DNA of 64,000 bases from Victivallaceae bacterium. Its GTDB lineage: Bacteria > Verrucomicrobiota > Lentisphaeria > Victivallales > Victivallaceae. Below, one piece after another: positions 2,176 to 48,007 of this stretch. Made by a program: the position numbers and the translations under genes. A model generated the notes under the pieces. It was given only the letters and a program-made list of their open reading frames with translations, was not told where the DNA came from and ran no database searches. Location: assembly GCA_031549115.1 (NCBI GenBank), contig JAVBQJ010000071.1, forward strand, positions 7,451 through 71,450. Direction: 5' to 3'. Within the stretch, counting starts at the first letter, position 1, and each line of letters opens with the position of its first letter.

Positions 2176-2203
2176 TTGACTTTTCGCTTTTTTGGCCTAT
2201 AAT
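2176..2203 (+). promoter_or_regulatory. Sigma70-like promoter of pseudopilin cassette 1 (TTGACT, 16-nt spacer, TATAAT)
   Basis: Consensus -35 TTGACT at 2176..2181 and perfect -10 TATAAT at 2198..2203. The same arrangement recurs upstream of the paralogous cassette at 6281..6308. Confidence 0.6.
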
Positions 2204-2283: not shown

Positions 2284-2952
2284 ATGAAAAGAAGGAATCG
2301 ATTTACGCTCATAGAGCTCCTGGTGGTGATTGCGATTATTGCCATTCTTGCCAGTATGTTGCTGCCGGCGCTGAGCAAAGCGCGCGCTGCGGCGCAGAAC
2401 ATCAAATGTGTGGGCAGCATCAAGCAGCTGGCACTGGCGCAAACGTTGTATGCCGGCGACAACAATGACTATTTCTTTCCGGCCTATGACGACGACGATA
2501 AGATATGGTGGATGGACTGGGCGTTGTTGCCGTATGTTTCGTGGGACTTTGTCTTCAAGGGCTGCCCCAATATGTCGCCGTTCAATGAGGGTTATATCTC
2601 CTACGGGTATAACTTCCTGCTGCTTTTCGGATCTTCCGGCAACCGGAGCACCCCCTGTAAAGTCACCGCGGTGGAGAATCCCTCGGAGACCATAATATTG
2701 CAGGACGCCAATCGCGATCTGCCCAACGGAAACTATATCGGCATCGCCCCCTGGGCGGCGGATCTGCAGAAAATGGGCGGCACCTATGCCTCCATCGCGC
2801 ACGACGGCGGAGCGAAATTGAATTGCGCCTGGGTGGACGGCCATGCGTCGACCGAACAAAACAGCAAACTCTGGACTGGCCAAGCCCCCACCGGAAACAC
2901 TTGGTACTATGAGCGCCGGAAAGGTAAAAACCTGGACAGCGGCGAATGGTAA
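2284..2952 (+). CDS. DUF1559 family prepilin-type N-terminal cleavage/methylation domain protein (type II secretion pseudopilin-like)
   Basis: N-terminus [33 protein letters not shown] (prepilin peptidase motif plus hydrophobic helix). C-terminal ...VDGHASTE motif typical of DUF1559. Ribosome-binding site gaaggga precedes the ATG. Confidence 0.85.
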
Positions 2953-3019
2953 GTCGGGTTGCAAAGCCGGAGCAATAAAGCGATTTTTTTTTTGGACAGT
3001 CGGAGCAAGAGGAGTATCT

Positions 3020-5971
3020 ATGGTTTGGGGTAAGGGGAGATGGAGTGCAATTGCTTTATTGACAATGGTTTTGTCGTTTTTTGGCAATGCTGCTGATAAT
3101 CTGGGCTGGCAGGATCAATTCGACGTCATCGACGCCGATCGCTGGTGCATTGTGCCGGCTTCGGCGGAGATTGTGCCGACGGATAATCTGAGCGCCGCCA
3201 ACCGGGCGTTGAAAATCACGCCGCCGTACAGCCAGCATTACATGGCGACGGGCGATAAGTTTTCCGACGGCGTGTGCGAGATTCGTTTCAAAGCGAAGAG
3301 CACGAACGCCGGCGAATTCATGTACTATATCGGTTTTCATAATTACGAACCGTGGATCAAAGCGTTGTGCTGGGTTGTCATCCACAACGACACGGTGATG
3401 TTTCAGGTCAAAGCGCCGGACGGCACCAACCGCTCGGAAAAGCTGGCGGATCTGACCGACGGCTGGCATACGTTGAAATTGCAGTACGCGCCGGGCGCGA
3501 TCACTGCGGATTGGGACGGGGAGGCGACAATAACGTACGACGATCCGGCGCTGTACTCGCCCGAAGCGATGCCCTTTTTTATCAGTGCCAACACCGAAAG
3601 AATTGATTTTGTCCCGCAGGAGGGTCCCCCGGATACCGCCGAATTGATGGTCGATTACCTGAAAGTTTCCGGCGGCAAGCCGGAGCCGGTCATGACGGCC
3701 CGGGAACTGACCGGGCCGGAAGCCCAATTGGTCGGCGCCGATCCCGTGGTGAAGGCGGTACTGCCGGGCGGCGGCTACGCGATCGCGCTGGATGGCGGCA
3801 TGCACTGGAAATCGATCGTCGTGGACGGGACCGAAATGCTGGACCCGGACTTCTTCGCTCCGGTCTTCGGCGCCCGGGTCGACGGCAAAAACATTTATTC
3901 CCACCAGTTTGAAACCACCGGAGTGGAGCGCTCCGGCGACGCTTTCACGGTGCATTCGCTCCATGCCGCCACTGCGACCGCCGCGACGCTGACCGGCAAG
4001 GTCGAGGCGGGGCGGTTCCTGCTGGGACTGCAATTGGGCAACGGCGCCGGGGAGGAACGCCGGCTGCAGCCGATCTTCCCGATCGTCGGCAGCTTCGCCG
4101 TAAACGGCGACTTCGCCGGGACGGAATACTTCTTCCCGTGGCGCAGCGGGATAATGGGTGACAACACCGCCAGCTTTTTCACCGAATACGGCGGTCTGGG
4201 CTGGATGCAGCTGATGTTCGTCCGGCATCCGGGCGTGGAACGCGGGGTGTATTTTTACCCCGAGGACGCCGGCGGGAGCTTCAAAGGCATGTCGATGAGC
4301 AAGAGGCTGGCCGGGGTCAACCCCGAGGTCTATCACTCCGAGACGGTGCACCCCGAAGAATTCGCGCTGGAGGATATACTCGAAGACCGCACCGGCATGG
4401 TGATGAACTATTACTATCGGACGAACCATGTCGCCCCCGGCGGCACGGTGCAGTTGCCGGACACCGTTTTCAGCGGTTGGAACGGCGGCTGGAAGGAGCC
4501 GATGCGCATCTATGCCGACTGGATGAAGTCGCACATGAGCCCGGTGGAGACGCCGCGTCACTTCCGTGACAGCTTCGCCTGGCAGAACTGGCATCCGCCG
4601 ACCTATTACGACAAGGAGGAGAAGCGGTATATCGGACATGAGCGTCTGGCCGGCGGCGAGGATGCGCTGCAGGCGGCCTTCTGGGATGACTATGTCGAAT
4701 ATCCGCCCAATGCGGTGGTTACCGTTTTGCAGCGGTTTCAGCCCGGCGACTTCGAGGTGAACCGTTCCCGCGGCGGCGTGGAAGCGTTTGCGGCTGAAAT
4801 CGCCAAAATCCGGGCTATCGGAACCCGTTTCTCGATCTACATCGACCACCGCTTCTGCTGGCGTGAAACCAAAACAGCGCAAAAGCACGGTGAAGCGTGG
4901 GCGGTCCGGGATCCGCAAGGCAAACCGTATGGCTACTCCAATGATAACGACCTGTATATGATGTGTTTCTACGATCAGGACAAGTGGGTCGAATATATGG
5001 CGGACACCTGTCATCGGCTGATTCGCGATACCGGCATGGACGCGATTTACCTGGACGAACTCGGTATTGCGTTCCCGTGCTACAGCAAAAGTCACGATCA
5101 TTACCGGAACGGGATGTACCCCACCGATCCGGTGGGGCTGGGCAAGTCGATGACCGTGGTCCGCAATCGCATGAAGGAGGCCAATCCGGAAGCGGCCTTG
5201 ATGACCGAACATGCCGGAAGCGACTACCTGACCCAGTTCTACGACGGCTCCTGGAATCAGACCTTTTACGAAGGGGCATTCCCATTTACCGAAAAATATT
5301 ATGACGATCTGAAGCTGTGCTATTTCCGTTTCCTGTTCCCGCATTTCAAGCTGTCGGAGTGGGGCGGCAGCCGCGATCATATCCGCCGCAGCTTCTTCAA
5401 CGGCATGGGCTGGGACATGGGGGGAGGGCCCGAAACCGACTTATCCCGTACCCTGGCGCGGGTGCTGAAGGAGAACGGCGACGCGATTGCCACCCTCTAT
5501 CCGGAACCGATCGTCCCGACCGGCAACCCCGGTCTCTTGGCGAACCGTTTCGACGCGCCCGGAAAAGTGGTTTATACGTATTACAATAACTCCGAGGCGC
5601 CGCTGACCGCCGGAGTCACCGAAGCCGCGCCGTTTGCCGGGCACTATGTCGAGCTGCGCCACGATGTCATGCTGGATTCCCCGGCCGTCGCCGTTCCCGC
5701 CGGCGAAGTCGCCGCGGTCGCTCTTTACCCGGAATTGCTGAAGTTGGAAGCCGACGGCAACAGCCGCCGGATCACCGCACCGGCGGCGCCGAATCAGGAG
5801 CTCGTGATCTGCGAAGGGGTTGACGATTCGCACTTCCTGCCGCCGCGCGGCACCTGGACACGGATCGACTTCACTACTGGAGAAGCCGCGTATGCGCCGC
5901 GCGACACCAACGTCAAGTTGATCGTCAAGCTGCTCCGCGACGGTTACCTCGTCGACGAATTGGTGCGTTAA
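3020..5971 (+). CDS. Large secreted protein (983 aa): N-terminal lectin/LamG-like (DUF1080-like) beta-sandwich plus central/C-terminal TIM-barrel-like putative glycosidase domain; cassette copy 1
   Basis: The ORF track gives 2843..5971, but that start overlaps the upstream gene. The internal ATG at 3020 has ribosome-binding site ggagcaagaggag and a signal peptide (WSAIALLTMVLSFFGNA). About 65% identity to the paralog at 7159. Motifs IYLDELGIAFPCY and MTEHAGSDY suggest acidic catalytic residues. Family unknown to me. Confidence 0.75.
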   Translation: MVWGKGRWSAIALLTMVLSFFGNAADNLGWQDQFDVIDADRWCIVPASAEIVPTDNLSAANRALKITPPYSQHYMATGDKFSDGVCEIRFKAKSTNAGEFMYYIGFHNYEPWIKALCWVVIHNDTVMFQVKAPDGTNRSEKLADLTDGWHTLKLQYAPGAITADWDGEATITYDDPALYSPEAMPFFISANTERIDFVPQEGPPDTAELMVDYLKVSGGKPEPVMTARELTGPEAQLVGADPVVKAVLPGGGYAIALDGGMHWKSIVVDGTEMLDPDFFAPVFGARVDGKNIYSHQFETTGVERSGDAFTVHSLHAATATAATLTGKVEAGRFLLGLQLGNGAGEERRLQPIFPIVGSFAVNGDFAGTEYFFPWRSGIMGDNTASFFTEYGGLGWMQLMFVRHPGVERGVYFYPEDAGGSFKGMSMSKRLAGVNPEVYHSETVHPEEFALEDILEDRTGMVMNYYYRTNHVAPGGTVQLPDTVFSGWNGGWKEPMRIYADWMKSHMSPVETPRHFRDSFAWQNWHPPTYYDKEEKRYIGHERLAGGEDALQAAFWDDYVEYPPNAVVTVLQRFQPGDFEVNRSRGGVEAFAAEIAKIRAIGTRFSIYIDHRFCWRETKTAQKHGEAWAVRDPQGKPYGYSNDNDLYMMCFYDQDKWVEYMADTCHRLIRDTGMDAIYLDELGIAFPCYSKSHDHYRNGMYPTDPVGLGKSMTVVRNRMKEANPEAALMTEHAGSDYLTQFYDGSWNQTFYEGAFPFTEKYYDDLKLCYFRFLFPHFKLSEWGGSRDHIRRSFFNGMGWDMGGGPETDLSRTLARVLKENGDAIATLYPEPIVPTGNPGLLANRFDAPGKVVYTYYNNSEAPLTAGVTEAAPFAGHYVELRHDVMLDSPAVAVPAGEVAAVALYPELLKLEADGNSRRITAPAAPNQELVICEGVDDSHFLPPRGTWTRIDFTTGEAAYAPRDTNVKLIVKLLRDGYLVDELVR

Positions 5972-5974: not shown

Positions 5975-6290
5975 GCGGTTGTCGAGGAGAAAATGGGGAG
6001 GGCTTCTTGCCCTCCACGCCACCCCGGCAGGGTGCCCCGCGTTACGCTCGCTGACGCGAGCTTACTTTTCGCCCTTGCGCTTCGCGCTGCGTTTACTGCC
6101 GACAATATATGTCCGGTCCCCCGGCTACCCCCTTCAGGACCTACGCCTGTTGTCGGGTTTACCGCCTCCGGCAGGGGACTCCGCATTTCGACATGGTGCA
6201 ATGATTTGCGGTTTGCCGGGATGGAACCGCAAACCGGGAGCGGAATGTCATATAGATTTTGCTTTTTTTCTCCGGCGCTATTGACTTTTT
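5975..6290. repeat. GC-rich hairpin-dense intergenic element related to the repeat at 23949-24480 and 50207-50700
   Basis: Shares the module ccacgccaccccggcagggtgcc with 11860-11890 and, as a reverse complement, with 24440-24460. Several stem-loops are present (gggagggcttcttgccctcc; cggtttgccgggatggaaccgcaaaccg). The six-frame ORFs here (5968..6402 -, 5979..6284 +) have no ribosome-binding site and proline/arginine-rich composition, and are probably spurious. Confidence 0.5.
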
Positions 6291-6308
6291 GTTTTTTTTG
6301 TCTATAAT
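6281..6308 (+). promoter_or_regulatory. Sigma70-like promoter of pseudopilin cassette 2 (TTGACT, 16-nt spacer, TATAAT)
   Basis: Same -35/-10 and spacing as 2176..2203. Confidence 0.6.
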
Positions 6309-6345
6309 TATAAGCAGCTTGTTTCTTCTTTTTTTTTAGAAAAAT

Positions 6346-6365
6346 ATTTGAGTACGATATCAAAT
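6346..6365 (+). promoter_or_regulatory. Second copy of the 20-bp palindrome ATTTGAgtacgatatCAAAT
   Basis: Identical to 2237..2256 and similarly placed downstream of the -10. Confidence 0.55.
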
Positions 6366-6432
6366 TTAAGAAATAGTAACGATTGACGGAAAATACGGAC
6401 AAGAGCCAACATCAAACGAAAGGGATGATGAA

Positions 6433-7128
6433 ATGAAAAAAGGGAGTCGTTTTACACTCATAGAGCTTCTGGTGGTGATTGCGATCATCGCTATTCTCGC
6501 CAGCATGCTGCTGCCGGCGTTGAGCAAGGCGCGCGCCTCCGCGCAGAGCATCAAATGCCTGGGCAATAACAAGCAGATGGCGCTGGGGGCGTTGATGTAT
6601 GCCACCGACAACAATGAGTGGGTGCTGACCGGAGACCGTTCGAAAATGTTGGACGGCAAGGCATGGCCGGAGCAGCTGCGCCGGTACCTGGGCAGCCAGA
6701 AAATATTCGAATGCCCGTCGTACAGCAACGACCGCTATTCCGATACCGGATGGACATTCGACGACGGCGAATTGTACCAGGGTGCATACGGCATGAATGC
6801 CCGGATGGGGGCGGAGGACAATAATCCGCATACGGAAATTCACAAGCTGCCGGGGCCGACCGGCAATACCTTTCCGGTTTTCCTGGAAATCAACGGACCG
6901 TGCGGCCTGGCGTTGATTCACCTGTCCCGCGGCGAATCGGCGGCCAACCTGTGGGGCAAATATACCGACCGGCACAAAAACGGCGGCAACATCGTCTATT
7001 CGGACGGCAGCGCCAGATGGACCAGCTACGATGAATATTCTTCGTTGGTGGATAAGTCGAAAACCGCCGCCGGCGGCAAGATTCCGGGAGACTGGGGTGA
7101 CGCACTGGCGTTCATGCTCGGATACTGA
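6433..7128 (+). CDS. DUF1559 family prepilin-like protein (paralog of 2284..2952)
   Basis: N-terminus [38 protein letters not shown]-terminal ...YSDGSARW motif. Ribosome-binding site aagggatga precedes the ATG. Confidence 0.85.
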
Positions 7129-7158: not shown

Positions 7159-10100
7159 ATGAGTAAGTTACGTTTCTGGTACGGACTCCTGGTTTTGCTC
7201 ATCGGAGCCGGTGTGTATGCCGCTTCCGAAAGTCAGAGCTGGCAGGAGAATTTCGACTCCATCGACACGAAGCGCTGGAAGGTGATTCCGGCTTCGGCGG
7301 AGATCGTACCGACCGATCAATTGAGCGCCGCCAACCGGGCGCTGAAGCTGAATCCGGCGTTGGGGCAGCACTATATGACCACGTCGGACAAGTTCATCGA
7401 CGGCAGTTGTGAAATCCGCTTCAAGGCGAAGCGGCCGTCGTCGGGCGAACTGTTCTATTATATCGGCTTCCACGCCTATGAGCCGTGGGTGAAGGCGTTG
7501 TGCTGGATCATGATTCAGGGCGATACCGTCAGCTTCGGCGTCAAAACCCCGGACGGCGTGAGCCGGTCGGAAAAGCTGGCGGACCTGACCGACGGCTGGC
7601 ATACGCTCAAATTGCATTACTCATCCGATGCGATCTCTGCCGAATGGGATGGCGAGAAGACGCTGACCTACGACGACCCGGCGCTGTATTCCAGCGAGCC
7701 GATGCCGTTTTTCATCGGCGCGTATACCGTCGAAGGGACCAAAGATCCCGCCGAACTGATGGTCGATTATCTGAAAGTCACCGGCGGCAAGCCGGCGGCG
7801 ATAATGGCCCCGCGGACATTGACCGATGCCGAAAAAATGGTGATCGGCGTCGATTCCGTGGTGGCGGCGCAGTTGCCAGGCGAACGCTATGCGATCGCGC
7901 TGGACGGTGGCATGCACTGGCAATCGATTGACGCGGACGGTACCGAAATGCTGGCGCCGGACTTCTTCGCGCCGGTGTTCGGAGCGCGGATCGATGGGAA
8001 AAATGTCTTTTCGCACCAGTTCGAAGTCACCGGAGTGAAGCGCTCCGGCGACGCCTTCGCGGTCGAGCTCCTGTACCCGGAATCCGCGACTGCTGCGACG
8101 GTTTCGGGCGCGGTGAAGGACGGCCGCTTCCGGCTGGATCTGCAATTGCGCAATGACGACAAGCAGGAGCATCGGCTGCAGCCGGTGTTCCCGGTGGTCG
8201 GCAGCCTGGCGGTCGGCGGCGACTTCGCCGGAACCGAATACTTCTTTCCGTGGCGCGGCGGCGTCCTGGGGGACAATACCGCGTATTTTTCGACCGAGTA
8301 CGGCGGGCTGGGGTGGACGCAGTTGATGTTCGTGCTGGATCCCGCCTCCGGCCGCGGGCTGTACTTTTATCCGGAGGACGCCTCCGGCCGCTTCAAAGGC
8401 ATGTCGATGATCAAACAATTGATCGATACCAATGTCGACGTGTACCATACCGAATCGGTGATCGCCGAAGAGGTGCCGACGCTGGATATGCTGGAAAACC
8501 GTACCGGGTTGGTGATGAACTATTACTACCGGACCGAAACGGTCGCGCCTGGTGTCGCGGTGGAGGTGCCGGAAACTGTGTTCGGCAGCTGGCGGGGCGA
8601 CTGGAAAGAGCCGATGCGGCTCTATGCCGACTGGATGAAGTCGCAGATGCAGCCGGTGGAGGTGCCGCGCCAGTTCCGCGACAGCTTCACCTGGGGCAAC
8701 TGGCATCCGCCGGCCTATTACGACAAGCAGGCGCAGCGTTACGTCGGCCGCGAACGGCTGGCCGGCGGCGAAGACGCGCTGCAATGGGCCTTCTGGGATG
8801 ACTATGTCGAATATCCGGCCGATGCGAAAATCCCGTCGCTGCAGCGCTACCAGCTCGGCGACTTCGAGGTGAACCGCTCCCGTGGCGGGATGGAAACTTT
8901 CGCGGCCGAAATTGCCCGGATCCGTGAGGTCGGAACCCGCTTCTCGGTCTACATCGACCACCGTTTCTGCTGGCGCGAAACCAAGACCGCGCAGAAGTAC
9001 GCCGACGCGTGGGCGGTCAAGGACCCGAACGGCAAGCCGTACGGTTATACCTCCGATGAAGACTTGTACATGATGTGCTTCTACGATGCGGACAAGTGGG
9101 TGAACTATATGGCCGAAACCTGCCATGGGCTGATTCGCGACACCGGCATGGATACGATTTACCTGGACGAGCTCGGCATCGCGTTTCCCTGCTACAACAA
9201 GCTGCACAGCCATTATCAGGCGGGGGAGTATCCGACCGATCCGGTCGGCCTGGGGAAGGCGATGACGCTGGTACGCAATCGCATGAAAGAGGCCAATCCG
9301 GAAGCGGCGCTGATGACCGAACACGCCGGCAGCGACTATCTGACCCAGTTCTACGACGGTTCGTGGGACCAGACCTTTTACATGCATGCGTTCCCGTTCA
9401 CCGAGAAGTATTATGACGACCAGAAGATCTGCTACTTCCGTTTCATGTTCCCCAACTTCAAGTTGTCGGAATGGGGCGAGAGCCGTGATCACATCCGGCG
9501 CAGCTTCTTCAACGGCATGGGGTGGGACATGGGGGTGACGGACACCGATCTGTCCCGCACTCTGGCGCGGGTGCTGAAGGAGAACGGCGACGCGATTGCC
9601 ACCCTCCATCCGGAACCGATCGTCCCGACCGGCAACCCCGGTCTCTTGGCGAACCGTTTCGACGCCCCCGGAAAAGTGGTTTACACCTACTATAATAACT
9701 CCGAGGCGCCGCTGACCGCCGGAGTCTCCGAAGCCGCGCCGTTTGCCGGGCACTATGTCGAGCTGCGCCACGATGTCATGCTGGATTCCCCGGCCGTCGC
9801 CGTTCCCGCCGGTGAAGTCGCCGCGGTCGCTCTTTATCCGGAATTGCTGAAGCTGGAAGCCGACGGCAACAGCCGCCGGATCACCGCACCGGCGGCGCCG
9901 AATCAGGAGCTCGTAATCTGCGAAGGCGTTGACGATTCGCATTTTCTGCCGCCGCGCGGCACCTGGACGCGGATCGACTTCGCCTCCGGAGAAGCCGCGT
10001 ATGCGCCGCGCGACACCAACGCCAAGTTGATCGTCAAGCTGCTCCGCGACGGCTATCTCGTCGACGAAGTGGGGGGTGGACGGCAAAGACTCGGCGGGCC

Positions 10101-10317
10101 CGGCCGCACTCCCATCCGGTTGGGAGTGCGGACGGGCCCTTGCATTTTACCCGATATGGTGTTATCTTTTTATTTCATAAGCAATGAAACACCAAGGATA
10201 CGGGAGATCTTTTCATGGAGTTTACTCTTTGGAGTGAGGCGGGCGCGGCAATCGGTTCGGTGGCGGCGAACGGCACGGTGGGGCGCGATGTGCTCGACCG
10301 CGCCGGGGCGGTGTTGA
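7159..10317 (+). CDS. Large secreted lectin-like/TIM-barrel protein, cassette copy 2; annotated ORF carries an ~80-aa C-terminal read-through extension (probable lost stop)
   Basis: Signal peptide LLVLLIGAGVYAASE. Collinear with 3020..5971 up to ...LLRDGYLVDE at 10070. Copy 1 then has a stop, but copy 2 continues through a G-run (gtggggggtgg) and a terminator-like hairpin (10097..10139), and overlaps the next gene. The functional end is probably near 10070-10080. Confidence 0.7.
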   Translation: MSKLRFWYGLLVLLIGAGVYAASESQSWQENFDSIDTKRWKVIPASAEIVPTDQLSAANRALKLNPALGQHYMTTSDKFIDGSCEIRFKAKRPSSGELFYYIGFHAYEPWVKALCWIMIQGDTVSFGVKTPDGVSRSEKLADLTDGWHTLKLHYSSDAISAEWDGEKTLTYDDPALYSSEPMPFFIGAYTVEGTKDPAELMVDYLKVTGGKPAAIMAPRTLTDAEKMVIGVDSVVAAQLPGERYAIALDGGMHWQSIDADGTEMLAPDFFAPVFGARIDGKNVFSHQFEVTGVKRSGDAFAVELLYPESATAATVSGAVKDGRFRLDLQLRNDDKQEHRLQPVFPVVGSLAVGGDFAGTEYFFPWRGGVLGDNTAYFSTEYGGLGWTQLMFVLDPASGRGLYFYPEDASGRFKGMSMIKQLIDTNVDVYHTESVIAEEVPTLDMLENRTGLVMNYYYRTETVAPGVAVEVPETVFGSWRGDWKEPMRLYADWMKSQMQPVEVPRQFRDSFTWGNWHPPAYYDKQAQRYVGRERLAGGEDALQWAFWDDYVEYPADAKIPSLQRYQLGDFEVNRSRGGMETFAAEIARIREVGTRFSVYIDHRFCWRETKTAQKYADAWAVKDPNGKPYGYTSDEDLYMMCFYDADKWVNYMAETCHGLIRDTGMDTIYLDELGIAFPCYNKLHSHYQAGEYPTDPVGLGKAMTLVRNRMKEANPEAALMTEHAGSDYLTQFYDGSWDQTFYMHAFPFTEKYYDDQKICYFRFMFPNFKLSEWGESRDHIRRSFFNGMGWDMGVTDTDLSRTLARVLKENGDAIATLHPEPIVPTGNPGLLANRFDAPGKVVYTYYNNSEAPLTAGVSEAAPFAGHYVELRHDVMLDSPAVAVPAGEVAAVALYPELLKLEADGNSRRITAPAAPNQELVICEGVDDSHFLPPRGTWTRIDFASGEAAYAPRDTNAKLIVKLLRDGYLVDEVGGGRQRLGGPGRTPIRLGVRTGPCILPDMVLSFYFISNETPRIREIFSWSLLFGVRRARQSVRWRRTARWGAMCSTAPGRC
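10097..10139 (+). terminator. Terminator-like hairpin downstream of the conserved end of cassette gene 2
   Basis: gggcccggccgcactccca-tccggt-tgggagtgcggacgggccc (about a 17-bp stem) followed by ttgcatttta. Confidence 0.5.
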
Positions 10318-11831
10318 CGATCAAAGGTTTTGTCCCCTATATCGACGCGGCCGGCTATTGGCACAGCGATCTGGAACGGTTGGCGCCAATGGAGCTGCCG
10401 TGGGTGATCGAGTTCACTTGCGGCGCCAACCGCAGTTTCCCATTCTGGTGTCTGTATAACCAGTCCTATCGCAACTGCGCGGCGGTCGGGTTGACCGATT
10501 GCTTCGACGACTGCCGGGTGCGGGCGAAAATGAATCAGGAAGCCGGTGGCTACGAGCTTTCGTTTGCGCTGTCGGTGGCGCCGGAAACTGAAGCGTTCCG
10601 GGTCTGGGTCGACGCACGGCCGGTTCCGTTTCCGCAGGCGGTGGCCGGGTTTCGGCACGAACTGCTGCCGGCGGCGCCGAAGTACCCCGAAGGGGCGTGG
10701 AATCCGGTTTATTGCACCTGGTACGCGGTGCATACGGTGTTGTCGGAGGCGTATCTGGAGGAGAATGCCCGGATTGCCCGGAAGCTAGGCTTCGGTACCT
10801 TTATCGTCGACGACGGCTGGTGTCTGGACGACAGCAAGCGGGTGACGCCGGCGACCCTGCCGACCTGGTACGAATGGATCGGCGACTGGAAGCTGTCGGA
10901 GAAGAAATTGCCGCAGATGAAGCGGACCATCGCCAGAGCGCAGGCCGACGGCTGGAATTATATGTTCTGGGTGGCGCCGTTTTTTGTCGGCGACCGCAGC
11001 GAACTGGCGCGGCGGGTATCCGATTATCTGACCGATTCGCACGAAGGACAGCGCTTGCTCGATCCGCAGGATCCGGAGATGGCGCAGTTCACGATGGAGA
11101 GCATCCTGAAGGTTTTCCGCGACCTCGAGCTCGACGGGTTGAAAATCGACTTCATCGACATCATCCAGCCGGATGAAAAGCGGCCGCGCAGCCGGGCGGC
11201 GTTCCGCTATGCCGAAGAGCTGGTGCGGCGGATCCGGGAGGTCAAGCCGGAGGCGCTGATCGAATTCCGGCAGAATTACGGCACGCCGGTGATGGCGGGG
11301 CTGGCGACGGCGTTCCGCGCCGGCGACGTGCCGTTCGATTATGTCGAAAACTTCGAACGCTGCGTGCAACTGCGGCTGCTGTTGGGCGACGGCGTGCCGG
11401 TGCATGCCGATCCGGTGTATTTCCGCAACGACGAAACTCCGGTGAACGTGGCGCGGCACATGATGGCGGCGATGGCGGGAGTGCCGATGCTGTCGATGGA
11501 TCTGCGGGAATTGACGGCGGAGCAGTTGACGATCATCGGTAATTATCTGGCGCTCTACCGGAAGCAACAGACGGTGTTGAATTTCGGACATTGGGAGTTC
11601 CGGTTCAGCTTCGGGCATACCCCGTGGGCGCGCTGTAGTCATGAAAGTGGCACGGTGGTATTCGTCTGGGAGCGGGAGTTTCTGGCGCCGGCGCTCGAGG
11701 GCGTGACCGGGTCGGTGACGGTGCTGAACCTGAGCGACGCAGCGCTGTCCATGCCCGGAATGACCGGCTTCGACGCCGCCGGGAAAGCTACCGGTGATGT
11801 CGCCCCCGCCGGCGGGCGCCTGGAGAACTGA
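10215..11831 (+). CDS. Alpha-galactosidase-like glycoside hydrolase (clan GH-D, GH36/GH27-like)
   Basis: Motifs FIVDDGWCLDD and GLKIDFID resemble the DDGW and KxD catalytic regions of GH27/GH36 enzymes. Ribosome-binding site gggagatctttTCATG. 538 aa. Family-level call only. Confidence 0.6.
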   Translation: MEFTLWSEAGAAIGSVAANGTVGRDVLDRAGAVLTIKGFVPYIDAAGYWHSDLERLAPMELPWVIEFTCGANRSFPFWCLYNQSYRNCAAVGLTDCFDDCRVRAKMNQEAGGYELSFALSVAPETEAFRVWVDARPVPFPQAVAGFRHELLPAAPKYPEGAWNPVYCTWYAVHTVLSEAYLEENARIARKLGFGTFIVDDGWCLDDSKRVTPATLPTWYEWIGDWKLSEKKLPQMKRTIARAQADGWNYMFWVAPFFVGDRSELARRVSDYLTDSHEGQRLLDPQDPEMAQFTMESILKVFRDLELDGLKIDFIDIIQPDEKRPRSRAAFRYAEELVRRIREVKPEALIEFRQNYGTPVMAGLATAFRAGDVPFDYVENFERCVQLRLLLGDGVPVHADPVYFRNDETPVNVARHMMAAMAGVPMLSMDLRELTAEQLTIIGNYLALYRKQQTVLNFGHWEFRFSFGHTPWARCSHESGTVVFVWEREFLAPALEGVTGSVTVLNLSDAALSMPGMTGFDAAGKATGDVAPAGGRLEN

Positions 11832-12153: not shown

Positions 12154-12654
12154 ATGAAACGGCTTTTTAACTGGGGAATGATGATTTTGCTGGCGGCATT
12201 GCTGATCGCACCGTACTTCAAGTATGAGCGATTCGGCGAACACACCGACGCCGTCACCGCGACCACCACAGGCGTGGCCGGTGTGTGGAATGGCATGGAC
12301 GGATTGTTGCTGCTCTGTCCGTTGGTCATTGTCCTGTCTTTCAAACTGATCTGGCAATTTCAGGCGTATGTGGAAAGCGTCACGCAAGCGCGGGTCAAAC
12401 CCCGTTATCTCTGGATGCTGCTTCTGGCATTGGGAATGATTCTCCTGAGCCTCCGGCCCTGGACGACCGAGACTTCGAACGTGGAAGCGGTGAACGACGT
12501 CATGATGACGGTCACAGTGCGGCACTCCTACGGGATTCGGAACATCGCCTACTACACACTTTCCGTTTTTGGGCTTTGCTGGATGATGCACTTGCTCCGG
12601 CTGACCCGCACGCTGCTGGTATACCAGGCCGAAAAGCAGAAGAAAAGCGAATAA
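12154..12654 (+). CDS. Small hypothetical membrane protein (about 4 transmembrane helices)
   Basis: ATG at 12154 preceded by gcagaggaaaatc. Hydrophobic segments MMILLAALLIAPYF, LLLLCPLVIVLSF, LWMLLLALGMILLSL, LSVFGLCWMMHLL. Confidence 0.55.
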   Translation: MKRLFNWGMMILLAALLIAPYFKYERFGEHTDAVTATTTGVAGVWNGMDGLLLLCPLVIVLSFKLIWQFQAYVESVTQARVKPRYLWMLLLALGMILLSLRPWTTETSNVEAVNDVMMTVTVRHSYGIRNIAYYTLSVFGLCWMMHLLRLTRTLLVYQAEKQKKSE

Positions 12655-12698
12655 TATTCGCGCATTCGTTTCCTCGTCTCAGAAAAACGCAAAAATCA

Positions 12699-12739
12699 AA
12701 CAGTTTAATATTGACAACTGTTTGTGGTGTGCTATATTC
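12699..12739 (+). promoter_or_regulatory. Promoter (TTGACA, 17-nt spacer, TATATT) overlapped by palindrome AACAGTTtaatattgacAACTGTT; likely MarR autoregulatory operator
   Basis: -35 at 12711..12716 and -10 at 12734..12739. Perfect 7-bp inverted repeat 12699..12722 spans the -35. Confidence 0.55.
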
Positions 12740-12770
12740 TCTCTTGCGAAGCGGCGAAAGGAGCTTGACG

Positions 12771-13244
12771 ATGGAACATGATGTTATGACGTTCATGAAT
12801 TTGTACGAAGTTTTCGGATACATTCAGGGACAGGCATGGAGTTTGCTCCCGAAAGAGGGCAACCGTGAGATCGACGCGTTGAACAATCGCCAGATCAAGG
12901 CGATGATGCTTATCTACATGCGCGATGCCGCACGAAAGGAGCCGCTGACACTGAGCGGACTGGCGGGGTTTTTGAACCTGAAAAAAGCGGCGGCTTCGCT
13001 TCTGGTCTCCGATCTGGCGCAGAAGCAGCTGGTCGACCGGACGATCGACCCGATCAATCGCCGCTTTATTCGGATCACGCTGGCCGCCAAGGGGCGGAAA
13101 ATCGGCAATGCCGTTTCCGCGCAGGCGGCGGCGCATGCCGCCGGACTGCTCGACTGCCTGACGCCGGAAGAACGTTCGGCTTTCGTGGTGGGCGCGGATA
13201 AAATCTACAATCGTTATGCGGAAGCCGCGGGAGGTGCCGAATGA
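12771..13244 (+). CDS. MarR family transcriptional regulator
   Basis: 157 aa. Winged-helix region LSGLAGFLNLKKAAASLLVSDLAQKQLVDRTIDPINRRFIRITLAAKGRK. Ribosome-binding site aaggagcttgacgATG. First gene of the efflux operon. The ORF track start at 12285 runs through the promoter and is unlikely. Confidence 0.8.
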   Translation: MEHDVMTFMNLYEVFGYIQGQAWSLLPKEGNREIDALNNRQIKAMMLIYMRDAARKEPLTLSGLAGFLNLKKAAASLLVSDLAQKQLVDRTIDPINRRFIRITLAAKGRKIGNAVSAQAAAHAAGLLDCLTPEERSAFVVGADKIYNRYAEAAGGAE

Positions 13245-18047: not shown

Positions 18048-18950
18048 CTATTTGGTTTTGCCGCGCCATTGCGCCGGGCTGGCGCCGTAGTAACGCCGGA
18101 AAGCGCGGGACAGCGCGAAGCCGCAGCTGAAGCCGGTTTTGCGGGCGATGGTATCGAGTTTGCAATCGGAATATTGCAGCATCCGCGCGGCGGTGTTCAT
18201 CCGGATCTCCTGCAGCATGGCGCCTGGGGATTTGCCGTAAATGCGGCGCACGGCGAGAAAGAGATTGGGGACCGACATGCCGGCCCTGCGGGCGAATTCC
18301 CGGAGATTCCAGGGGCGGTCCGGGTTTTCTTCGACCTCCTTGAACAGCATGCGGATACGGATCTGCTGCTCCGGGTCGCGGCCGAAGTTGGACAATTCCC
18401 GGTGAAGATACATCACCGCGGCGCGACACAGCAAATGCTGCATCACCGCGTCGCCGCTGCCGTGGATCGCGGTTTCGCTGTACAAGAGCTCCAATACCGA
18501 TCCGATATTTTCCGCCCATTCGGCCGGGCGCACGAGGCAATCCTGCGGCAGCCGTTTCTTCCAGCAGGCCGCGGCCGGGATCAGGTGAAACCACAGTATC
18601 GCCGCCGCCTCTTCGGCATGGTAGCAGTGCGGTGTTTCCGCTTGCAAGTAGATGACATTTCCCGCTCCAACCGTGTTGACCCCGGCGATGCCGCTGTCGC
18701 AGATCAATGCTCCCCGGGTCACATATAAAATGACATGGTACGGGAAATTGAAACGGTTGATCCGGTATCCGTCCGTCAGCTCGCTGATGCCGGCGACGTC
18801 GATCTCCCGGTCCGGCCACAGCCGGTCCGTCTCCTCTCCGAAAAAGATGAAACGTTCCCGGCACCCTACCGGAATGCATTGTACCTCGCGGGCATTTTTC
18901 ATGGTGACTTCCATATCCTTTATGATAACTGAAAAATCCCCGGTTGTCAA
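18048..18950 (-). CDS. AraC family transcriptional regulator (cupin-like sensor plus C-terminal AraC helix-turn-helix)
   Basis: C-terminal helix-turn-helix region LREFARRAGMSVPNLFLAVRRIYGKSPGAMLQEIRMNTAARML...LDTIARKTGFSCGFALSRAFRRYYGASP. Start is uncertain (alternatives at 18911 or 18902). Confidence 0.75.
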   Translation of the reverse strand: MTTGDFSVIIKDMEVTMKNAREVQCIPVGCRERFIFFGEETDRLWPDREIDVAGISELTDGYRINRFNFPYHVILYVTRGALICDSGIAGVNTVGAGNVIYLQAETPHCYHAEEAAAILWFHLIPAAACWKKRLPQDCLVRPAEWAENIGSVLELLYSETAIHGSGDAVMQHLLCRAAVMYLHRELSNFGRDPEQQIRIRMLFKEVEENPDRPWNLREFARRAGMSVPNLFLAVRRIYGKSPGAMLQEIRMNTAARMLQYSDCKLDTIARKTGFSCGFALSRAFRRYYGASPAQWRGKTK

Positions 18951-19101: not shown

Positions 19102-19818
19102 ATGAACCGGAAAAATGGGAAAGCTTCCGATTCTCGGAACCGCGGCCGGAGTTTTACTTTGATAGAACTCCTGGTCGTGATCGCGATCATTGCGATTCTC
19201 GCCAGCATGCTGCTGCCGGCCCTGTCCAAGGCGCGGGCGGCGGCGCAGAATATCAAATGTGTCAACAACTTCAAGCAGATCGGCCTGGCGGCGGCGATGT
19301 ACCAGGGCGACAACAAAGACACGCTGGCGACCGGAAGGAATGGATTCTATGGCGGCACCGGCGAATGGGCCGGGCGTTTTCAGGGTTGGTGGCTGGATCT
19401 GGCGGTGACCGGATATCTGCCGGACGATTACGCCTATGACTGGTTCAGTGCCATCAACACGTTGGGCCACAAAGCCCTGGCTTGCCCGGTCATGGTCAAC
19501 AGCGGCGAGCGCTACAACTACGGCATCAACGAACTGCTGACCGGAGAATACTGCGGGTCGTTCCTGTATGGACGTACAAACTACGGAATGGCGACCGGCT
19601 TCGAAAATCCGTCGGGGCGCGCTTATCTGCTGGAGCCGACCGCCCGCGGCGACGGCATGTACATTTATACCACATTGGACACCGGCCGGGCGGTGGAGCG
19701 CGACCGTCACGGCAACTCCAGCAATGTGCTCTTCCTCGACGGCCATGCGGAGAGCATCCGTAAGGACGCGTTGAAAGATAGCCGCATCGAATTCCCCTGG
19801 AACGAAGCCACCGAATAA
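19102..19818 (+). CDS. DUF1559 family prepilin-like protein
   Basis: [41 protein letters not shown]-terminal [14 protein letters not shown] (the DUF1559 LFxDGHV motif). Ribosome-binding site gaaaggagtcgatgtcATG. Confidence 0.85.
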
Positions 19819-19822
19819 CCGG

Positions 19823-21760
19823 ATGAATTGCCTGATTATGGAAGAGCATACTTTGATCCCGCGCCCGGAATATCCGCGTCCGCGTTTCGTCCGCCACCTG
19901 CCGTGGCAAAATCTCAATGGCCGCTGGCGCTTCGCCTTCGATCCCGGCAAAAGCGCCGCCGCCCGGGGGCTGGCCCGGAATCCCGAGCTTTACGACCGGG
20001 AAATTCTGGTGCCGTTCTGCCCGGAGAGCCGGTGTTCCACCATCGAATGCACCGACTTCATCGAAGCCTGCGCCTATTGCCGCGAATTCGAGATTCCGGC
20101 CTCCTGGGCGGAATACCGGATTCTGTTACACTTCGACGCGGTGGATTACCGCTGCCGGGTCTATGTGGACGGCGTCGAAGTCGGCGGCCATGCCGGCGGC
20201 GGCACCGGTTTCGAGTTCGAACTGGATATCGTTCCGGGCAAACACCTGCTGGCGGTGCTGGTCGCCGATGAGGTGCGTTCGGGGCGGCAGGGGGCGGGCA
20301 AACAATGCGCCTCCTATGCTTCCTTCGGATGCGACTACACCCGGGTCACCGGCATCTGGCGCACGGTCTGGCTCGAAACGGTCGCCGACGGCGCGCTCAG
20401 AAGCTGCGGGATTGTCCCCAATATCGATACCGGATGCGTGCTGCTGACGCCGGAATATTACCGCGCCCGTTCCACCGACCGGCTGCAGGCGGCGGTGCTG
20501 GACGGTGGCGTGGTCGTCGCCGAGGCGGAGTACGCGGTGGCGGCGGGAATGCCGCTGTCCATGGCAATTCCGGCTCCGGTGAAGTTGTGGAGTCCGGAGT
20601 CGCCGTTCCGCTATGAACTGCGGCTGCGAATCGAGCGTGACGGCGCCGTCGTCGACGAGGTGTCCGGCTATTTCGGCATGCGCAAAATCCATTGCGAAAA
20701 CGGCGTGTTCCATCTCAACAACCGGCCGTTTTTCGCCCGGCTGGTGCTGGATCAGGGGTATGATCCGGAGGGCCTCTGGACGGCGCCCTCCGATGCGGCT
20801 TTCGAGGATATGATCCGGAAAGCCAAAGCGCTCGGCTTCAACGGCGCCCGGCTGCACCAGAAGTTGTTCGAAGACCGCTATCTGGATTGGGCCGACCGGC
20901 TCGGCTTCGTGGTCTGGAGTGAATATCCGAGCTGGGGGCTGGATTTGCACGCCGCCGAAGCGCGGGAAAACTTTCTGCGCGAATGGCGCGAGGCGGTGGC
21001 GGAGCGGGTGAATCATCCGTCGGTGATCGCGTGGGTGCCGTTCAACGAAACCTTTCTCTTTCCCACTCCCGAGGGCAAGATGCGGGCGTTTCCGGATCCG
21101 GAGGCGCTGGCGGCATACCGGAACTTCATCACCGAAGTCTACGATCTGACCCGGCAGCTGGATCCGAGTCGCCCGGTGTGCGACGCGAGCGGCTGGTATC
21201 ATGTCAAAACCGACTTGTGGGCGGTGCACCTGTACCGCCCCGACGCGGCCGCGCTGCGTACCGCCTTGCGGGATGACGCCCCCTTTGTGATGGTGCCGGA
21301 ATACGAAGCGCCGTACGGCGGCCAGCCGTTTTTCGTCGACGAATGGGGCGGCTTCCGCTTCGTCGCCGATCCGGCGCGGCAATCGGCCTCCAATGCCTGG
21401 GGGTACGGCACCGATCCGGAGACGCGGGAGGAGCTGCTCGCCAAAATCGCCGAACAGCTTGATGTCCTGTTGGAAACGCCGGGACTTCAGGGCTATTGTT
21501 ATACCCAGTTGACCGATATTGAGCAGGAGGAAAACGGACTCCTGACTCCCGAACGCGAACCGAAGGCGCCGTTTGCCGACTTTTACCGGCTGTTCAGCCG
21601 GCAACCGAAAGATTTTTGCTATGAAACGAATGCCGCTTCTGATTTTCATGATTCTGATTTTGCATGCCGCCATCGGCGGGACCGAGCCGATGATTCCGCG
21701 TCTGGACTGGGAGCCGCGCTCCGATTGGGTGAGCGTCAAAACGCCGAAAACCTGGCATAA
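19823..21760 (+). CDS. Glycoside hydrolase family 2-like protein (beta-galactosidase/beta-mannosidase/beta-glucuronidase family)
   Basis: N-terminal sugar-binding jelly-roll. Motifs NGARLHQKLF and IAWVPFNE resemble the GH2 TIM-barrel acid/base region. No signal peptide. The last ~50 aa look non-homologous and overlap the next gene by 140 bp, so the true C-terminus is uncertain. Confidence 0.7.
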   Translation: MNCLIMEEHTLIPRPEYPRPRFVRHLPWQNLNGRWRFAFDPGKSAAARGLARNPELYDREILVPFCPESRCSTIECTDFIEACAYCREFEIPASWAEYRILLHFDAVDYRCRVYVDGVEVGGHAGGGTGFEFELDIVPGKHLLAVLVADEVRSGRQGAGKQCASYASFGCDYTRVTGIWRTVWLETVADGALRSCGIVPNIDTGCVLLTPEYYRARSTDRLQAAVLDGGVVVAEAEYAVAAGMPLSMAIPAPVKLWSPESPFRYELRLRIERDGAVVDEVSGYFGMRKIHCENGVFHLNNRPFFARLVLDQGYDPEGLWTAPSDAAFEDMIRKAKALGFNGARLHQKLFEDRYLDWADRLGFVVWSEYPSWGLDLHAAEARENFLREWREAVAERVNHPSVIAWVPFNETFLFPTPEGKMRAFPDPEALAAYRNFITEVYDLTRQLDPSRPVCDASGWYHVKTDLWAVHLYRPDAAALRTALRDDAPFVMVPEYEAPYGGQPFFVDEWGGFRFVADPARQSASNAWGYGTDPETREELLAKIAEQLDVLLETPGLQGYCYTQLTDIEQEENGLLTPEREPKAPFADFYRLFSRQPKDFCYETNAASDFHDSDFACRHRRDRADDSASGLGAALRLGERQNAENLA

Positions 21761-30240: not shown

Positions 30241-31131
30241 ATGGCGAAAATTACGATCAACGATCTGTTGGAAGCCGGTTGTCATTTCGGACACCAGACC
30301 AAGCGTTGGAACCCGAAGATGAAGCACTTTGTCTATGGTGCGAAGAACGGCATCTCGATCATCGACCTGACCAAGACCATGGTCCAGATCGCCGAAGCCT
30401 GCAACTTTTTGCAGAACGTGGTGATGAAGGGCGGAGACATCCTGTTCGTCGGCACCAAGCGCCAGGCGCAGCAGATCACCCGCGAGCTGGCCGAGCGCAC
30501 CAATATGTTCTATGTTTCCGAGCGCTGGATGGGCGGTACTTTGACCAACAACATCACTATCCGCAAGAGCATCGCCAAGATGTACGACATCGACAAAACG
30601 ATGGATTCCGATGCTTCCAAGGGGCTGAAGAAGAAAGAATTGTCGATGATGGCGCGTAACGCGCAGCGTCTGCACCGCGACCTCGACGGCATTGCGTCGA
30701 TGAAGCGCCTGCCGGCGGCTCTGGTGGTGATCGACGTCTGTCACGACGACATCGCGGTCCGCGAAGCCAAGAAGCTGAATATTCCGATCGTCGCGATCTG
30801 CGATACCAACGGCGACCCGGAACCGATCGATTACCCGGTGGCGGCCAACGACGACGCGGTGAAGTCGATCAAGGTGATCACCGATTTGTTCAGCGACGCG
30901 ATTCTCATCGCCAAGGAAGTGTACCAGAAGCAGGTCGTCGAGGCGGAACAGGCGAAAGCCGCGGAAGCCAAGCTGAAGGCCGAAGAGGCGCAGGACGCCG
31001 AAGACGCCGCCCCGAAGGGGCAGGGCCCCCGTAAACCGCGTCCGCGCAAGCAGGACAACAAGCCGGCTGCCGATGATGTGATGGGGCAGGCAATGGCGGC
31101 GCAGGAAGTTGTGGCGCCCGCCGCGGAATAA
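30241..31131 (+). CDS. rpsB: 30S ribosomal protein S2 (with C-terminal Lys/Ala/Glu-rich extension)
   Basis: MAKITINDLLEAGCHFGHQTKRWNPKM...GTLTNN...PAALVVIDV is canonical S2. Ribosome-binding site aggagcgcaagcgaatcATG. Confidence 0.95.
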   Translation: MAKITINDLLEAGCHFGHQTKRWNPKMKHFVYGAKNGISIIDLTKTMVQIAEACNFLQNVVMKGGDILFVGTKRQAQQITRELAERTNMFYVSERWMGGTLTNNITIRKSIAKMYDIDKTMDSDASKGLKKKELSMMARNAQRLHRDLDGIASMKRLPAALVVIDVCHDDIAVREAKKLNIPIVAICDTNGDPEPIDYPVAANDDAVKSIKVITDLFSDAILIAKEVYQKQVVEAEQAKAAEAKLKAEEAQDAEDAAPKGQGPRKPRPRKQDNKPAADDVMGQAMAAQEVVAPAAE

Positions 31132-31160
31132 GCAATTTGCATAATTTTGAGGTGAAGAAA

Positions 31161-31967: not shown

Positions 31968-31995
31968 GATTCGGAAGCACAGTTTCAGAATCCAA

Positions 31996-32040
31996 CGCCG
32001 GTCGGAACGGGAACAACCGTCTGACCGGCGTGTTTTTTTA
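31996..32040 (+). terminator. Rho-independent terminator of the rpsB-tsf operon
   Basis: cgccggtcggaacgggaacaaccgtctgaccggcg hairpin followed by tgttttttt. Confidence 0.7.
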
Positions 32041-32054
32041 TCGTCATGAGATAA

Positions 32055-32300
32055 CAAAAAAATAGAGCCGCCATTCATGGCGGCGGTCTGCTCTCCGTCA
32101 TACGGAGGCGCGGTCCAGCAGGCGAATACTGCTGGTCGATGCGAAGCGAAAACGAGGGGCTTGTCCCCGAGGGGGAAGAGCAAGCTCACGAATGTGAGCG
32201 TAGCGAGAGCGGAAGCCACCCAAGGTAGCGATGGTGTAGGGAGAGCGAAGCGATTCCCGGAGCATAGAGCGGACGAGGCATCGCATCGGCGATGAGGACA
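32055..32300 (+). repeat. About 230-bp hairpin-rich repeat, family B copy 1 (candidate REP element or small ncRNA)
   Basis: aaaaaaaTAGAGCCGCcattcatGGCGGCGGTCTGCtCTCCGTCATACGGAGGCGCGGTCCAGC... Shares this ~70-bp head and downstream modules (gccacccaaggtagcgatggtgtag) with 42213..42443 and, inverted, with 34020..34262. Confidence 0.6.
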
Positions 32301-32309
32301 TAACGGTAG

Positions 32310-40962: not shown

Positions 40963-40976
40963 CACGGAGTGGTTCG

Positions 40977-47963: not shown

Positions 47964-48007
47964 AATTGAAAACAGTAACACTTGAAAATGGGGAACAGAA
48001 TCGTATT

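Follow-up and report, generated by a model that had tools for sequence, protein, structure and literature searches.

What kind of protein does a Victivallaceae bacterium encode at positions 3020-5971 of the 64,000-nucleotide stretch of DNA analysed here (the window), and can its catalytic region be assigned to an enzyme family that already has a name? The original prediction had described a secreted, uncharacterised protein of about 1000 residues with a putative TIM-barrel glycosidase domain, had considered the catalytic region impossible to place and had named a confident match to an established family as the finding that would speak against it.

The gene, its start and its predicted export signal

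The enclosing open reading frame on the plus strand spans 2843-5971, and as judged from sequence the true start is the ATG at 3020, because an AGGAG lies 8 nt upstream of it, an identical 983-aa protein is present in NCBI (P0001) and the start position is equivalent in all homologues compared. So delimited, the target gene occupies 3020-5971 of the plus strand, stop codon included, and encodes a DUF6259-family protein of 983 aa, as supported by the reading frame, Pfam and the homologues. An antisense open reading frame at 3056-5380 (774 aa) was rejected as a gene, since it is without a family match and represents a high-GC shadow of the plus-strand gene: when a family HMM was run against every reading frame in the window that has 100 codons or more, the plus-strand frame was the only one of the two to match. 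The N-terminus, MVWGKGRWSAIALLTMVLSFFGNA followed by AD, looks by eye like a Sec signal peptide in its succession of n, h and c regions, with cleavage predicted after GNA (aa 1-25, 3020-3094, plus strand), and an equivalent hydrophobic N-terminus is found in all eight full-length homologues. The size and the secretion originally proposed are thus borne out. Downstream of the gene, a terminator-like hairpin was recognized at 6046-6061 (plus strand) by consensus match.

Family placement

Over the barrel region, the target matched the Pfam family DUF6259 (PF19773) with 62.3 bits (E 5.5e-17), and a paralog in the window did so with 66 bits (E 4.1e-18), both above the gathering threshold of 28.7 bits. 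This is a confident match to an established family, and with it the catalytic region has a place after all, contrary to what had been claimed. Precomputed PF19773 assignments exist for all close relatives, and all full-length relatives carry the domain. Clustering at 50% identity gives the family at least 654 representatives; its Pfam model accounts for just about 300 core residues. Membership gives no mechanism, because DUF6259 is a family without described function. No literature was found on DUF6259, PF19773 or GHL6, nor any characterised DUF6259 member, and a profile search of a collection of 5.8 billion proteins returned only 27, none of them with a functional name. The nearest relatives of the target are from Lentisphaeria (51% identity), and the genome records with full-length family members are those of PVC bacteria that live in the gut, in freshwater or in marine habitats.

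Profile comparisons tie DUF6259 to GH36 alpha-galactosidases and galactosaminidases with E values of about 1e-8, and GH36 enzymes were both the best PDB matches at the sequence level in profile searches and the top Foldseek matches of the structural model. PDB searches with the single sequence gave nothing useful, an NCBIfam scan of the target gave no match, and neither paralog matched Pfam Melibiase, Glyco_hydro_36N or Glyco_hydro_36C at E<=1. The true GH36 gene of the window (47966-50206) scores E 2.5e-110 on the Pfam GH36 models. The target combines this remote homology to GH36 with the layout of N-terminal sandwich, (beta/alpha)8 barrel and C-terminal sandwich, and over its whole core it also resembles GH129 and GH101 enzymes in structure, with no likeness to these two families among the PDB profile matches listed and no Pfam match to them either. 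On sequence grounds, the target is a member of a known Pfam family and a distant cousin of the alpha-galactosidases, and its enzyme type is not new. The original view of an unknown family is to be dropped as far as the name is concerned, and stands as regards function and the suggestion that DUF6259 is possibly a new CAZy family.

Domain architecture

Two models were used. Model 1, an AF2 run with 8 sequences, had an unusable barrel (pLDDT 62) and served for the N-terminal domain only; model 2 was rated high-confidence. In model 1, aa ~28-220 (3101-3679, plus strand) are all-beta. A profile of this domain (A1) matched the laminin alpha1 LG domain with E 1e-4 and a GH16 glucanase with E 0.004, Foldseek matched it to the GH16 structure 3o5s (TMt 0.59) and to the jelly roll of botulinum toxin BoNT Hc, and in relatives the corresponding region matches Laminin_G_3, 3keto-disac_hyd or GH16. 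Profile, Foldseek and model 1 agree on a ConA-like lectin/glucanase (LamG) fold, and the domain is probably a carbohydrate-binding module. The LamG-like sandwich of the original prediction is thereby retained. Its proposed membership in the 3-keto-disaccharide hydrolase/DUF1080 family (PF06439, cutoff 26.8 bits) is not, as the target has no match and the paralog reaches 12 bits (E 0.22). Among more distant relatives, P0007 and P0008 carry a precomputed PF06439 match, which is weak for P0007.

The original prediction had called for a structure prediction and had located the region of interest at residues ~550-950. In model 2 a barrel with flanking sandwiches is seen, and the boundaries differ: a GH36-type N-terminal beta-(super)sandwich at aa ~243-488 (3746-4483, plus strand) separates the LamG-like domain from the predicted (beta/alpha)8 catalytic barrel at aa ~492-824 (4493-5491, plus strand). 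With hhalign, the sandwich aligns with the N domain of the GH36 protein encoded in the window itself; it contains the conserved residues D416, kept in 96% of relatives, and K422. Beta-sandwich domains at aa ~839-982 (5534-5965, plus strand), delimited by model 2 and conservation, form the C-terminus, where N842 and N856 are invariant among relatives.

Predicted active site

Model 2, Foldseek and conservation all uphold a glycosidase-like TIM barrel that contains invariant acidic residues. The three acidic motifs originally singled out, IYLDELGIAFPCY (aa 676 in the target, 667 in the paralog), AALMTEHAGSDYLTQFYDGSW (725 and 716) and YIDHRFCWRETKTAQK (607 and 598), are indeed present in both paralogs. 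Of their acidic residues, only D679 and E730 are invariant across the family. D609 (motif YIDHRFC) was rejected as a catalytic residue, being Asp in only 40 of 147 relatives; Glu replaces it in 48 of them and Asn in 17.

Asp679 (codon 5054-5056, plus strand; motif YLD) and Glu730 (codon 5207-5209, plus strand; motif MTEH) are the sole barrel carboxylates kept in all 151 relatives. Asp679, at the end of beta4, is the predicted nucleophile: it aligns with KWD in the GH36 protein of the window and, in a profile alignment, with D463 of FpGalNase, whose D463A variant is nearly inactive (PMC11762096). Glu730, at the end of beta5, follows strand 726-729 in model 2 and may act as general acid/base, a role suggested by the Asp/Glu pairs known from GH101 and GH129. 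By secondary structure and conservation, the two residues fit the GH129/GH101 pattern of Asp and Glu on successive strands. The acid/base Asp of GH36 enzymes sits after beta6 (AgaA D548, FpGalNase D532). In the target, where model 2 has beta6 at aa 743-746, secondary structure and conservation revealed no conserved carboxylate after this strand. None of the 151 relatives has the Lys of the GH36 K-x-D motif; its place is taken by Tyr (60%), Arg (38%) or Phe (2%). Many pocket-type residues are also conserved.

The nucleophile strand is flanked by Cys649, Cys687, His692 and His694 (4964-5101, plus strand), a putative metal site identified by conservation. The tetrad is CCHH in 137 of 151 relatives, and its exceptions co-vary (DDHH twice, SNHI, SNHE, PDRA and PDKP). 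The tetrad probably binds a metal ion with a part in shaping the active site. In the HMM alignment, the C...CxxxxHxH pattern is common to the target and FpGalNase, and one structure paper on FpGalNase makes no mention of metals (PMC11762096).

Comparison with known enzymes

FpGalNase, a GH36 galactosaminidase of Flavonifractor plautii (PDB 9awt, 9ayu, 8x1b), is 13% identical to the target and resembles it in its three-domain architecture, in the nucleophile Asp and in the C...CxxxxHxH pattern. These shared features, together with GH36 ranking first among both PDB sequence matches and Foldseek matches and with two genes nearby, one a canonical GH36 and one melibiase-like, favour the reading that the target is a divergent, FpGalNase-like member of CAZy GH36, for instance an alpha-galactosidase or alpha-galactosaminidase, in which case nothing would be new at the family level. 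We regard this as rather unlikely. FpGalNase has the motif K461-G-D463 and requires C513 and D532 (PMC11762096), whereas in the target a Tyr stands in place of the Lys (38% of the family have Arg), an invariant Glu730 occupies the beta5 position and no acid is conserved after beta6. FpGalNase also lacks an N-terminal LamG-like module, which the target has, and carries a C-terminal CBM instead. Canonical GH36 enzymes (AgaA, AgaSK, SpAga and the window's 47966-50206) share the architecture with TM-scores of only ~0.47-0.49; homology to them begins in the N-terminal sandwich, reaches as far as the nucleophile strand and is lost past beta4, and neither the KWD nor the C-x-x-G motif is kept.

The GH129 alpha-N-acetylgalactosaminidase NagBb (5wzn), a related 3,6-anhydro-D-galactosidase (5opq) and GH101 endo-alpha-GalNAcases are 10-11% identical to the target, with no sequence similarity detectable among the profile matches listed or in Pfam, and the putative metal ligands of the target are Cys2His2 as opposed to a Ca2+ site. 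GHL6, Cwp19/GHL10, GH66, GH114, GH151, GH168 and GH174 gave weak profile or structural matches centred on beta3-beta4, as expected for the alpha-galactosidase-like superfamily; the matches to Naumoff's GHL families and to GH66, GH114, GH151, GH168 and GH174 are sub-threshold or confined to the barrel, and none of these families has the full domain layout of the target.

Locus context and tandem duplication

The duplication and the linkage to pseudopilins in the original prediction were both confirmed. The paralog (7159-10317, plus strand; 1052 aa as called; Pfam and alignment) is 75-76% identical to the target protein. Its homology to the target stops near 10080, and the rest is a read-through tail, an 8-bp deletion having removed the stop codon. 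The 3' ~570 bp of the paralog are 92-96% identical to the target, as against 70-80% elsewhere.

Directly 5' of both enzyme copies lie pseudopilin-like genes with a prepilin N-terminal methylation motif, one of 222 aa at 2284-2952 (plus strand; Pfam N_methyl E 1.7e-7), which ends 67 bp upstream of the target gene, and one of 231 aa at 6433-7128 (plus strand; E 2.5e-4). A cassette of promoter, pseudopilin and enzyme gene is thus present twice in tandem. In the first, a sigma-70-like promoter was recognized by consensus match at 2176-2203 (plus strand; TTGACT-16-TATAAT, 11 of 12 matches), and about 130 bp around it, including the palindrome ATTTGAGTACGATATCAAAT, have a homologous counterpart ahead of the second, where a promoter-like site homologous to the first lies at 6281-6308 (plus strand). 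Among 23 loci compared, 16 contain a pseudopilin-like gene, in most directly adjoining the enzyme gene. The loci of relatives also encode LacI, GH95 and/or GH38 exo-glycosidases and sugar transporters. Close to the target itself lie a canonical GH36 gene and one of melibiase-like type. A search of the DUF1559 literature found nothing functional.

Proposed function

We consider it probable, with considerable room for doubt, that the target is a Sec-exported four-module DUF6259 enzyme on a distant, as yet uncharacterised branch of the TIM-barrel superfamily formed by retaining alpha-glycosidases (GH36, GH129, GH101, GH13, GH31). It is most likely a secreted retaining alpha-glycosidase of LacI-controlled PVC glycan-utilisation loci, beside GH95 or GH38 genes. 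The N-terminal ConA/LamG-like module would bind a glycan, and the core of N-terminal beta-sandwich, barrel and C-terminal beta domains would split an alpha-glycosidic bond by double displacement, with Asp679 as nucleophile, Glu730 as general acid/base and a metal ion in the neighbouring Cys2His2 tetrad shaping the site. The enzyme gene would be co-transcribed with the pseudopilin-like gene from the sigma-70-like promoter. Since the loci of relatives are LacI-regulated and contain GH95 and/or GH38 together with sugar transporters, the expected substrate is a fucose- and/or mannose-decorated glycan, which would be attacked outside the cytoplasm, upstream of the exo-enzymes. A sulfated fucan as leading guess was rejected: GH151, GH168 and GH174 gave weak matches, but no sulfatase is among the annotated neighbours.

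The same fold might instead carry out non-hydrolytic chemistry on oligosaccharides, as a transglycosylase, a glycoside phosphorylase or an enzyme like alpha-glucan lyase. This is unlikely, given that a signal peptide and a CBM-like module are typical of extracellular depolymerases, that the neighbours are exo-hydrolases and importers and that phosphorylases are normally cytoplasmic. Beta-linked or N-acetylhexosamine substrates, cleaved by a substrate-assisted or inverting, GH123-like or GH20-like mechanism, would account for a weak Pfam GH123_N match in the paralog (E 0.0019) and a GH123-like gene in one related locus; that match is short and below threshold, neither GH123 nor GH20 is among the top structural matches, and the invariant Asp aligns with the proven nucleophile of retaining alpha-enzymes, which makes such a mechanism very improbable. 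Hardest of all to believe is a scaffold or glycan-binding protein without catalytic activity that works with the pseudopilin and has retained a glycosidase fold, like the GH13-fold proteins CD98hc and rBAT, as the nucleophile Asp and barrel Glu kept in every relative and the many conserved pocket-type residues form a pattern usual for active enzymes.

The target is a reasonable candidate for finding a new enzyme activity, and the model, the predicted nucleophile and acid/base, the candidate metal site and the conserved partners GH95, GH38, LacI and transporters offer entry points for experiments. Its superfamily is already a source of useful enzymes, such as the blood-group-converting FpGalNase, and characterisation would probably add a specificity to it, and possibly a CAZy family. 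A bolder scenario strikes us as a long shot: DUF6259 would be a new GH family with a metal-dependent Cys2His2 site, a specificity other than that of GH36 or GH129 and an obligate pseudopilin partner, and the cassette a PVC-specific means of enzyme export, tethering or presentation on a T2SS-like pseudopilus. If true, this pseudopilus cassette would be a functional analogue of the SusC/D-linked enzymes of Bacteroidota. Genes for DUF1559 proteins and pseudopilins have undergone a large unexplained expansion in Planctomycetes and Lentisphaerae, on which the recurrent pairing of pseudopilin and enzyme may shed light.

Family assignment and remote homology of the duplicated putative enzyme

The target gene occupies 3020-5971 (+) within an ORF that the reading-frame listing places at 2843-5971 (+). 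We assign the true start to ATG 3020 because inspection of the sequence revealed AGGAG 8 nt upstream, because the NCBI protein P0001 (983 aa) is identical in sequence to the target protein and because all homologues start at the equivalent position, each with a hydrophobic leader. By inspection, MVWGKGRWSAIALLTMVLSFFGNA/AD at the N-terminus resembles a Sec signal peptide, in line with the secreted protein originally described. Target and second copy (7159-10317, +) share 75-76% identity, and the three motifs quoted in the original prediction are found in both paralogs; gene, duplication and linkage to pseudopilin genes are real. Antisense ORFs lie opposite both paralogs (3056-5380, -, 774 aa; 7621-10086, -, 821 aa). 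They gave no family match and were rejected as high-GC shadow ORFs. When the family HMM was run against all window frames of at least 100 codons, strong matches were confined to the two plus strand genes.

The original prediction had considered the catalytic domain unplaceable, a view that can no longer be maintained. Target and paralog score 62 and 66 bits with DUF6259 (PF19773), for which the gathering score is 28.7 bits. Sub-threshold Pfam echoes were GH66, GHL6 and GH123_N, with 3keto-disac_hyd at the N-terminus; an NCBIfam search of the protein and a single-sequence search of the PDB returned no match. A word-indexed protein search retrieved just 8 full-length relatives, and HMMER, run exhaustively against 1.84 billion cluster representatives, matched 654 of them at E<1e-3 (107 at E<1e-30) with a conserved core at aa ~280-980. 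A profile built from 59 family members, A2, matched two PDB entries at E 1e-8, namely 9awt, the GH36 galactosaminidase of Flavonifractor plautii (FpGalNase), and 8x1b, which was deposited as an alpha-galactosidase and goes under the name of the F. plautii enzyme in Foldseek. Weaker matches were Cwp19, AgaSK, a GH151 fucosidase, GH13, GH66, GH168 and GH114. The window also encodes a canonical GH36 enzyme of its own (47966-50206, Melibiase E 2.5e-110), which hhalign aligned with profile A2 over 392 columns (probability 94%, E 1.3e-7) from the N-terminal sandwich through beta4, pairing DAIYLDEL with the GH36 nucleophile motif VDFFKWDMN. DUF6259 is therefore demonstrably a distant relative of GH36. 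The family HMM and the missing beta6 acid exclude the target protein from GH36 itself, and it lacks the lysine of the KxD motif, although the Asp of that motif is kept; GH129 and GH101 are likewise rejected, no sequence similarity to either having been detected in Pfam or among the PDB profile matches listed. We regard the protein as representing a sister family, so far uncharacterised, in a well-known superfamily.

Predicted domain structure

An AlphaFold model built with an alignment of 8 sequences was unusable over the barrel (pLDDT 62). With 59 sequences, the model of aa 225-983 reached a pLDDT of 94.3 and a pTM of 0.93, and consists of a beta-sandwich (aa ~243-488), an eight-stranded (beta/alpha) barrel (aa ~492-824), as expected for the proposed TIM-barrel glycosidase-like domain, and C-terminal beta domains (aa ~839-982). 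The top Foldseek match in the PDB was FpGalNase (E 1e-24, TM 0.59/0.67, 13% identity), followed by other GH36 alpha-galactosidases and then by GH129 NagBb, a 3,6-anhydro-D-galactosidase, GH101 and GH31. Such scores at 10-14% identity mean that the modelled protein shares superfamily and three-domain plan with these enzymes, but not the family; its structure is GH129-like. An extra, all-beta N-terminal domain (aa ~28-220) matched a laminin LG domain (E 1e-4) and also a GH16 glucanase in profile searches; its Foldseek matches were GH16 and the jelly roll of botulinum-toxin Hc. Its fold is therefore ConA/LamG-like, as first proposed for the LamG part; the resemblance to DUF1080 (3keto-disac_hyd) remained a sub-threshold echo, short of membership by the Pfam threshold.

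Putative active site and a conserved Cys2His2 tetrad

Conservation was assessed with 157 family proteins aligned to the query, up to 151 of which span the barrel positions. Just two barrel carboxylates are kept in 151/151 relatives: Asp679, in YLD where beta4 ends, and Glu730, in MTEH where beta5 ends. Asn842 (150/150) is the single further residue at 100%. Y498, N856, Y607, D416, H692, H694, C687 and C649 are 92-99% conserved; position 735 is Asp or Glu in 97% and position 742 in 93%. The acidic motif YIDHRFC of the original prediction fared differently: D609 is not conserved across the family alignment, which rules it out as a catalytic residue.

In the HMM alignment Asp679 pairs with D463 of FpGalNase, which lies in a K461/D463 patch equivalent to that of AgaA, and the D463A variant had almost no activity (PMC11762096). 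GH36 enzymes carry Lys two residues before this Asp and an acid/base after beta6, whereas DUF6259 has Tyr (Arg in 38% of the family) at the former position and no conserved acid after beta6. Asp on beta4 with Glu on beta5 is the arrangement in GH13, GH101 and GH129, a pattern that Asp679 and Glu730 would fit by their strand positions in the model; titles of GH101 PDB entries among the Foldseek matches name D764N and E796Q mutants. From the invariance of both residues, the alignment with D463 and this beta4/beta5 pair, we propose an alpha-retaining double displacement in which the nucleophile would be Asp679 and the acid/base Glu730.

C649, C687, H692 and H694 (window 4964-5101) read CCHH in 137/151 relatives. 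The exceptions change jointly (DDHH twice, SNHI, SNHE, PDRA and PDKP), so the tetrad behaves as a ligand set and not as independent residues. In the AlphaFold model it lies in the beta3-alpha3 and beta4-alpha4 loops, flanking the nucleophile strand. FpGalNase has the same pattern, C...ECYNPAHNH, in the HMM alignment, and one structure paper on this enzyme makes no mention of metal (PMC11762096). The co-varying tetrad is a possible zinc or other metal site, which we treat as a lead rather than a result.

Organization of the cassettes

Pfam searches detected a prepilin N-methylation motif in the gene just upstream of each enzyme gene (2284-2952 and 6433-7128), confirming the reported pseudopilin linkage. 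Both pseudopilin genes have a promoter-like site close to consensus (TTGACT-16-TATAAT), ~80 bp before the start codon in the first cassette and ~125 bp in the second, and a terminator-like hairpin is located 3' of the target gene. The regions upstream of the cassettes (2130-2260 and 6235-6380, ~130 bp) are homologous and have in common, after the promoter-like site, the palindrome ATTTGAGTACGATATCAAAT, a candidate operator. The duplicated unit therefore comprises promoter, pseudopilin and enzyme. A MarR-like ORF (12285-13244) and an AraC-like ORF (18048-18950) were noted by eye near the cassettes.

The 3' ends of the paralogs (5404-5971 and 9516-10080, ~570 bp) share 92-96% DNA identity as against 70-80% elsewhere in the genes, suggesting that the C-terminal domains recently underwent gene conversion. 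Eight bp of the target gene, 'TGCGTTAA', are deleted in paralog 2, and the TAA stop is lost with them; the frame therefore stays open for ~75 low-complexity codons (10073-10317) and runs into the next gene, which begins at 10215. This tail may be a genuine extension of the C-terminus, or else an artefact of assembly or mutation.

Genomic context and distribution

Directly downstream of paralog 2, a melibiase-like protein of 538 aa (10215-11831; partial Melibiase match, E 5e-11, aa 167-315) possibly adds a second divergent GH36-like enzyme to the locus. Farther downstream (19102-23948), a third such cassette has a pseudopilin (N_methyl and DUF1559) directly followed by a GH2-like gene and by a gene for a beta-helix protein with pectate-lyase fold; pairing of pseudopilin and CAZyme thus appears to be general in this genome. 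Pfam searches placed an AGE-family epimerase upstream of the cassettes. A DUF4838 protein (42444-44717, -) with a weak match to the GH67 N-terminal domain is another putative uncharacterised glycosidase. ORFs at 30831-32960 (-), 39028-40965 (-) and 53600-56740 (+), with predicted products of 708, 644 and 1046 aa, had no Pfam match at E<=0.001.

A genome scan identified 18 loci, all in PVC bacteria: Lentisphaeria/Victivallales (39-51% identity), Puniceicoccaceae, Pirellulales and other Planctomycetes; the protein search added a relative from a Sedimentisphaerales MAG. A pseudopilin-like gene, mostly adjoining the enzyme gene, was present in 16/23 compared loci. Other partners were a LacI regulator (9), GH95 (9), GH38 (7), URO-D-like proteins (6) and an SSF transporter (5); they vary among loci and do not identify the substrate. 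Longer family members are fused to LamG repeats, a GDSL esterase or GH115. Promoter and duplication anatomy, neighbours, taxonomy, synteny and fusions together point to extracytoplasmic glycan degradation.

At planctomycete and some Lentisphaeria loci (L003 15210-21667, L014 15137-21383, L015 15506-21809, L001 5706-6980), enzyme and GH95 are followed by 1-3 URO-D-family genes, by an SSF transporter and by a conserved protein of ~700 aa for which Pfam gave no match. As URO-D-like proteins of anaerobes include corrinoid methyltransferases, one may speculate that these genes provide an O-demethylation route for methylated sugars.

We consider it improbable that DUF6259 represents a metal-dependent new GH family working with a dedicated pseudopilin partner. 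The enzyme type would come as no surprise to the specialist; DUF6259 is CAZyme 'dark matter' of a useful sort, for which the experimental route is clear.
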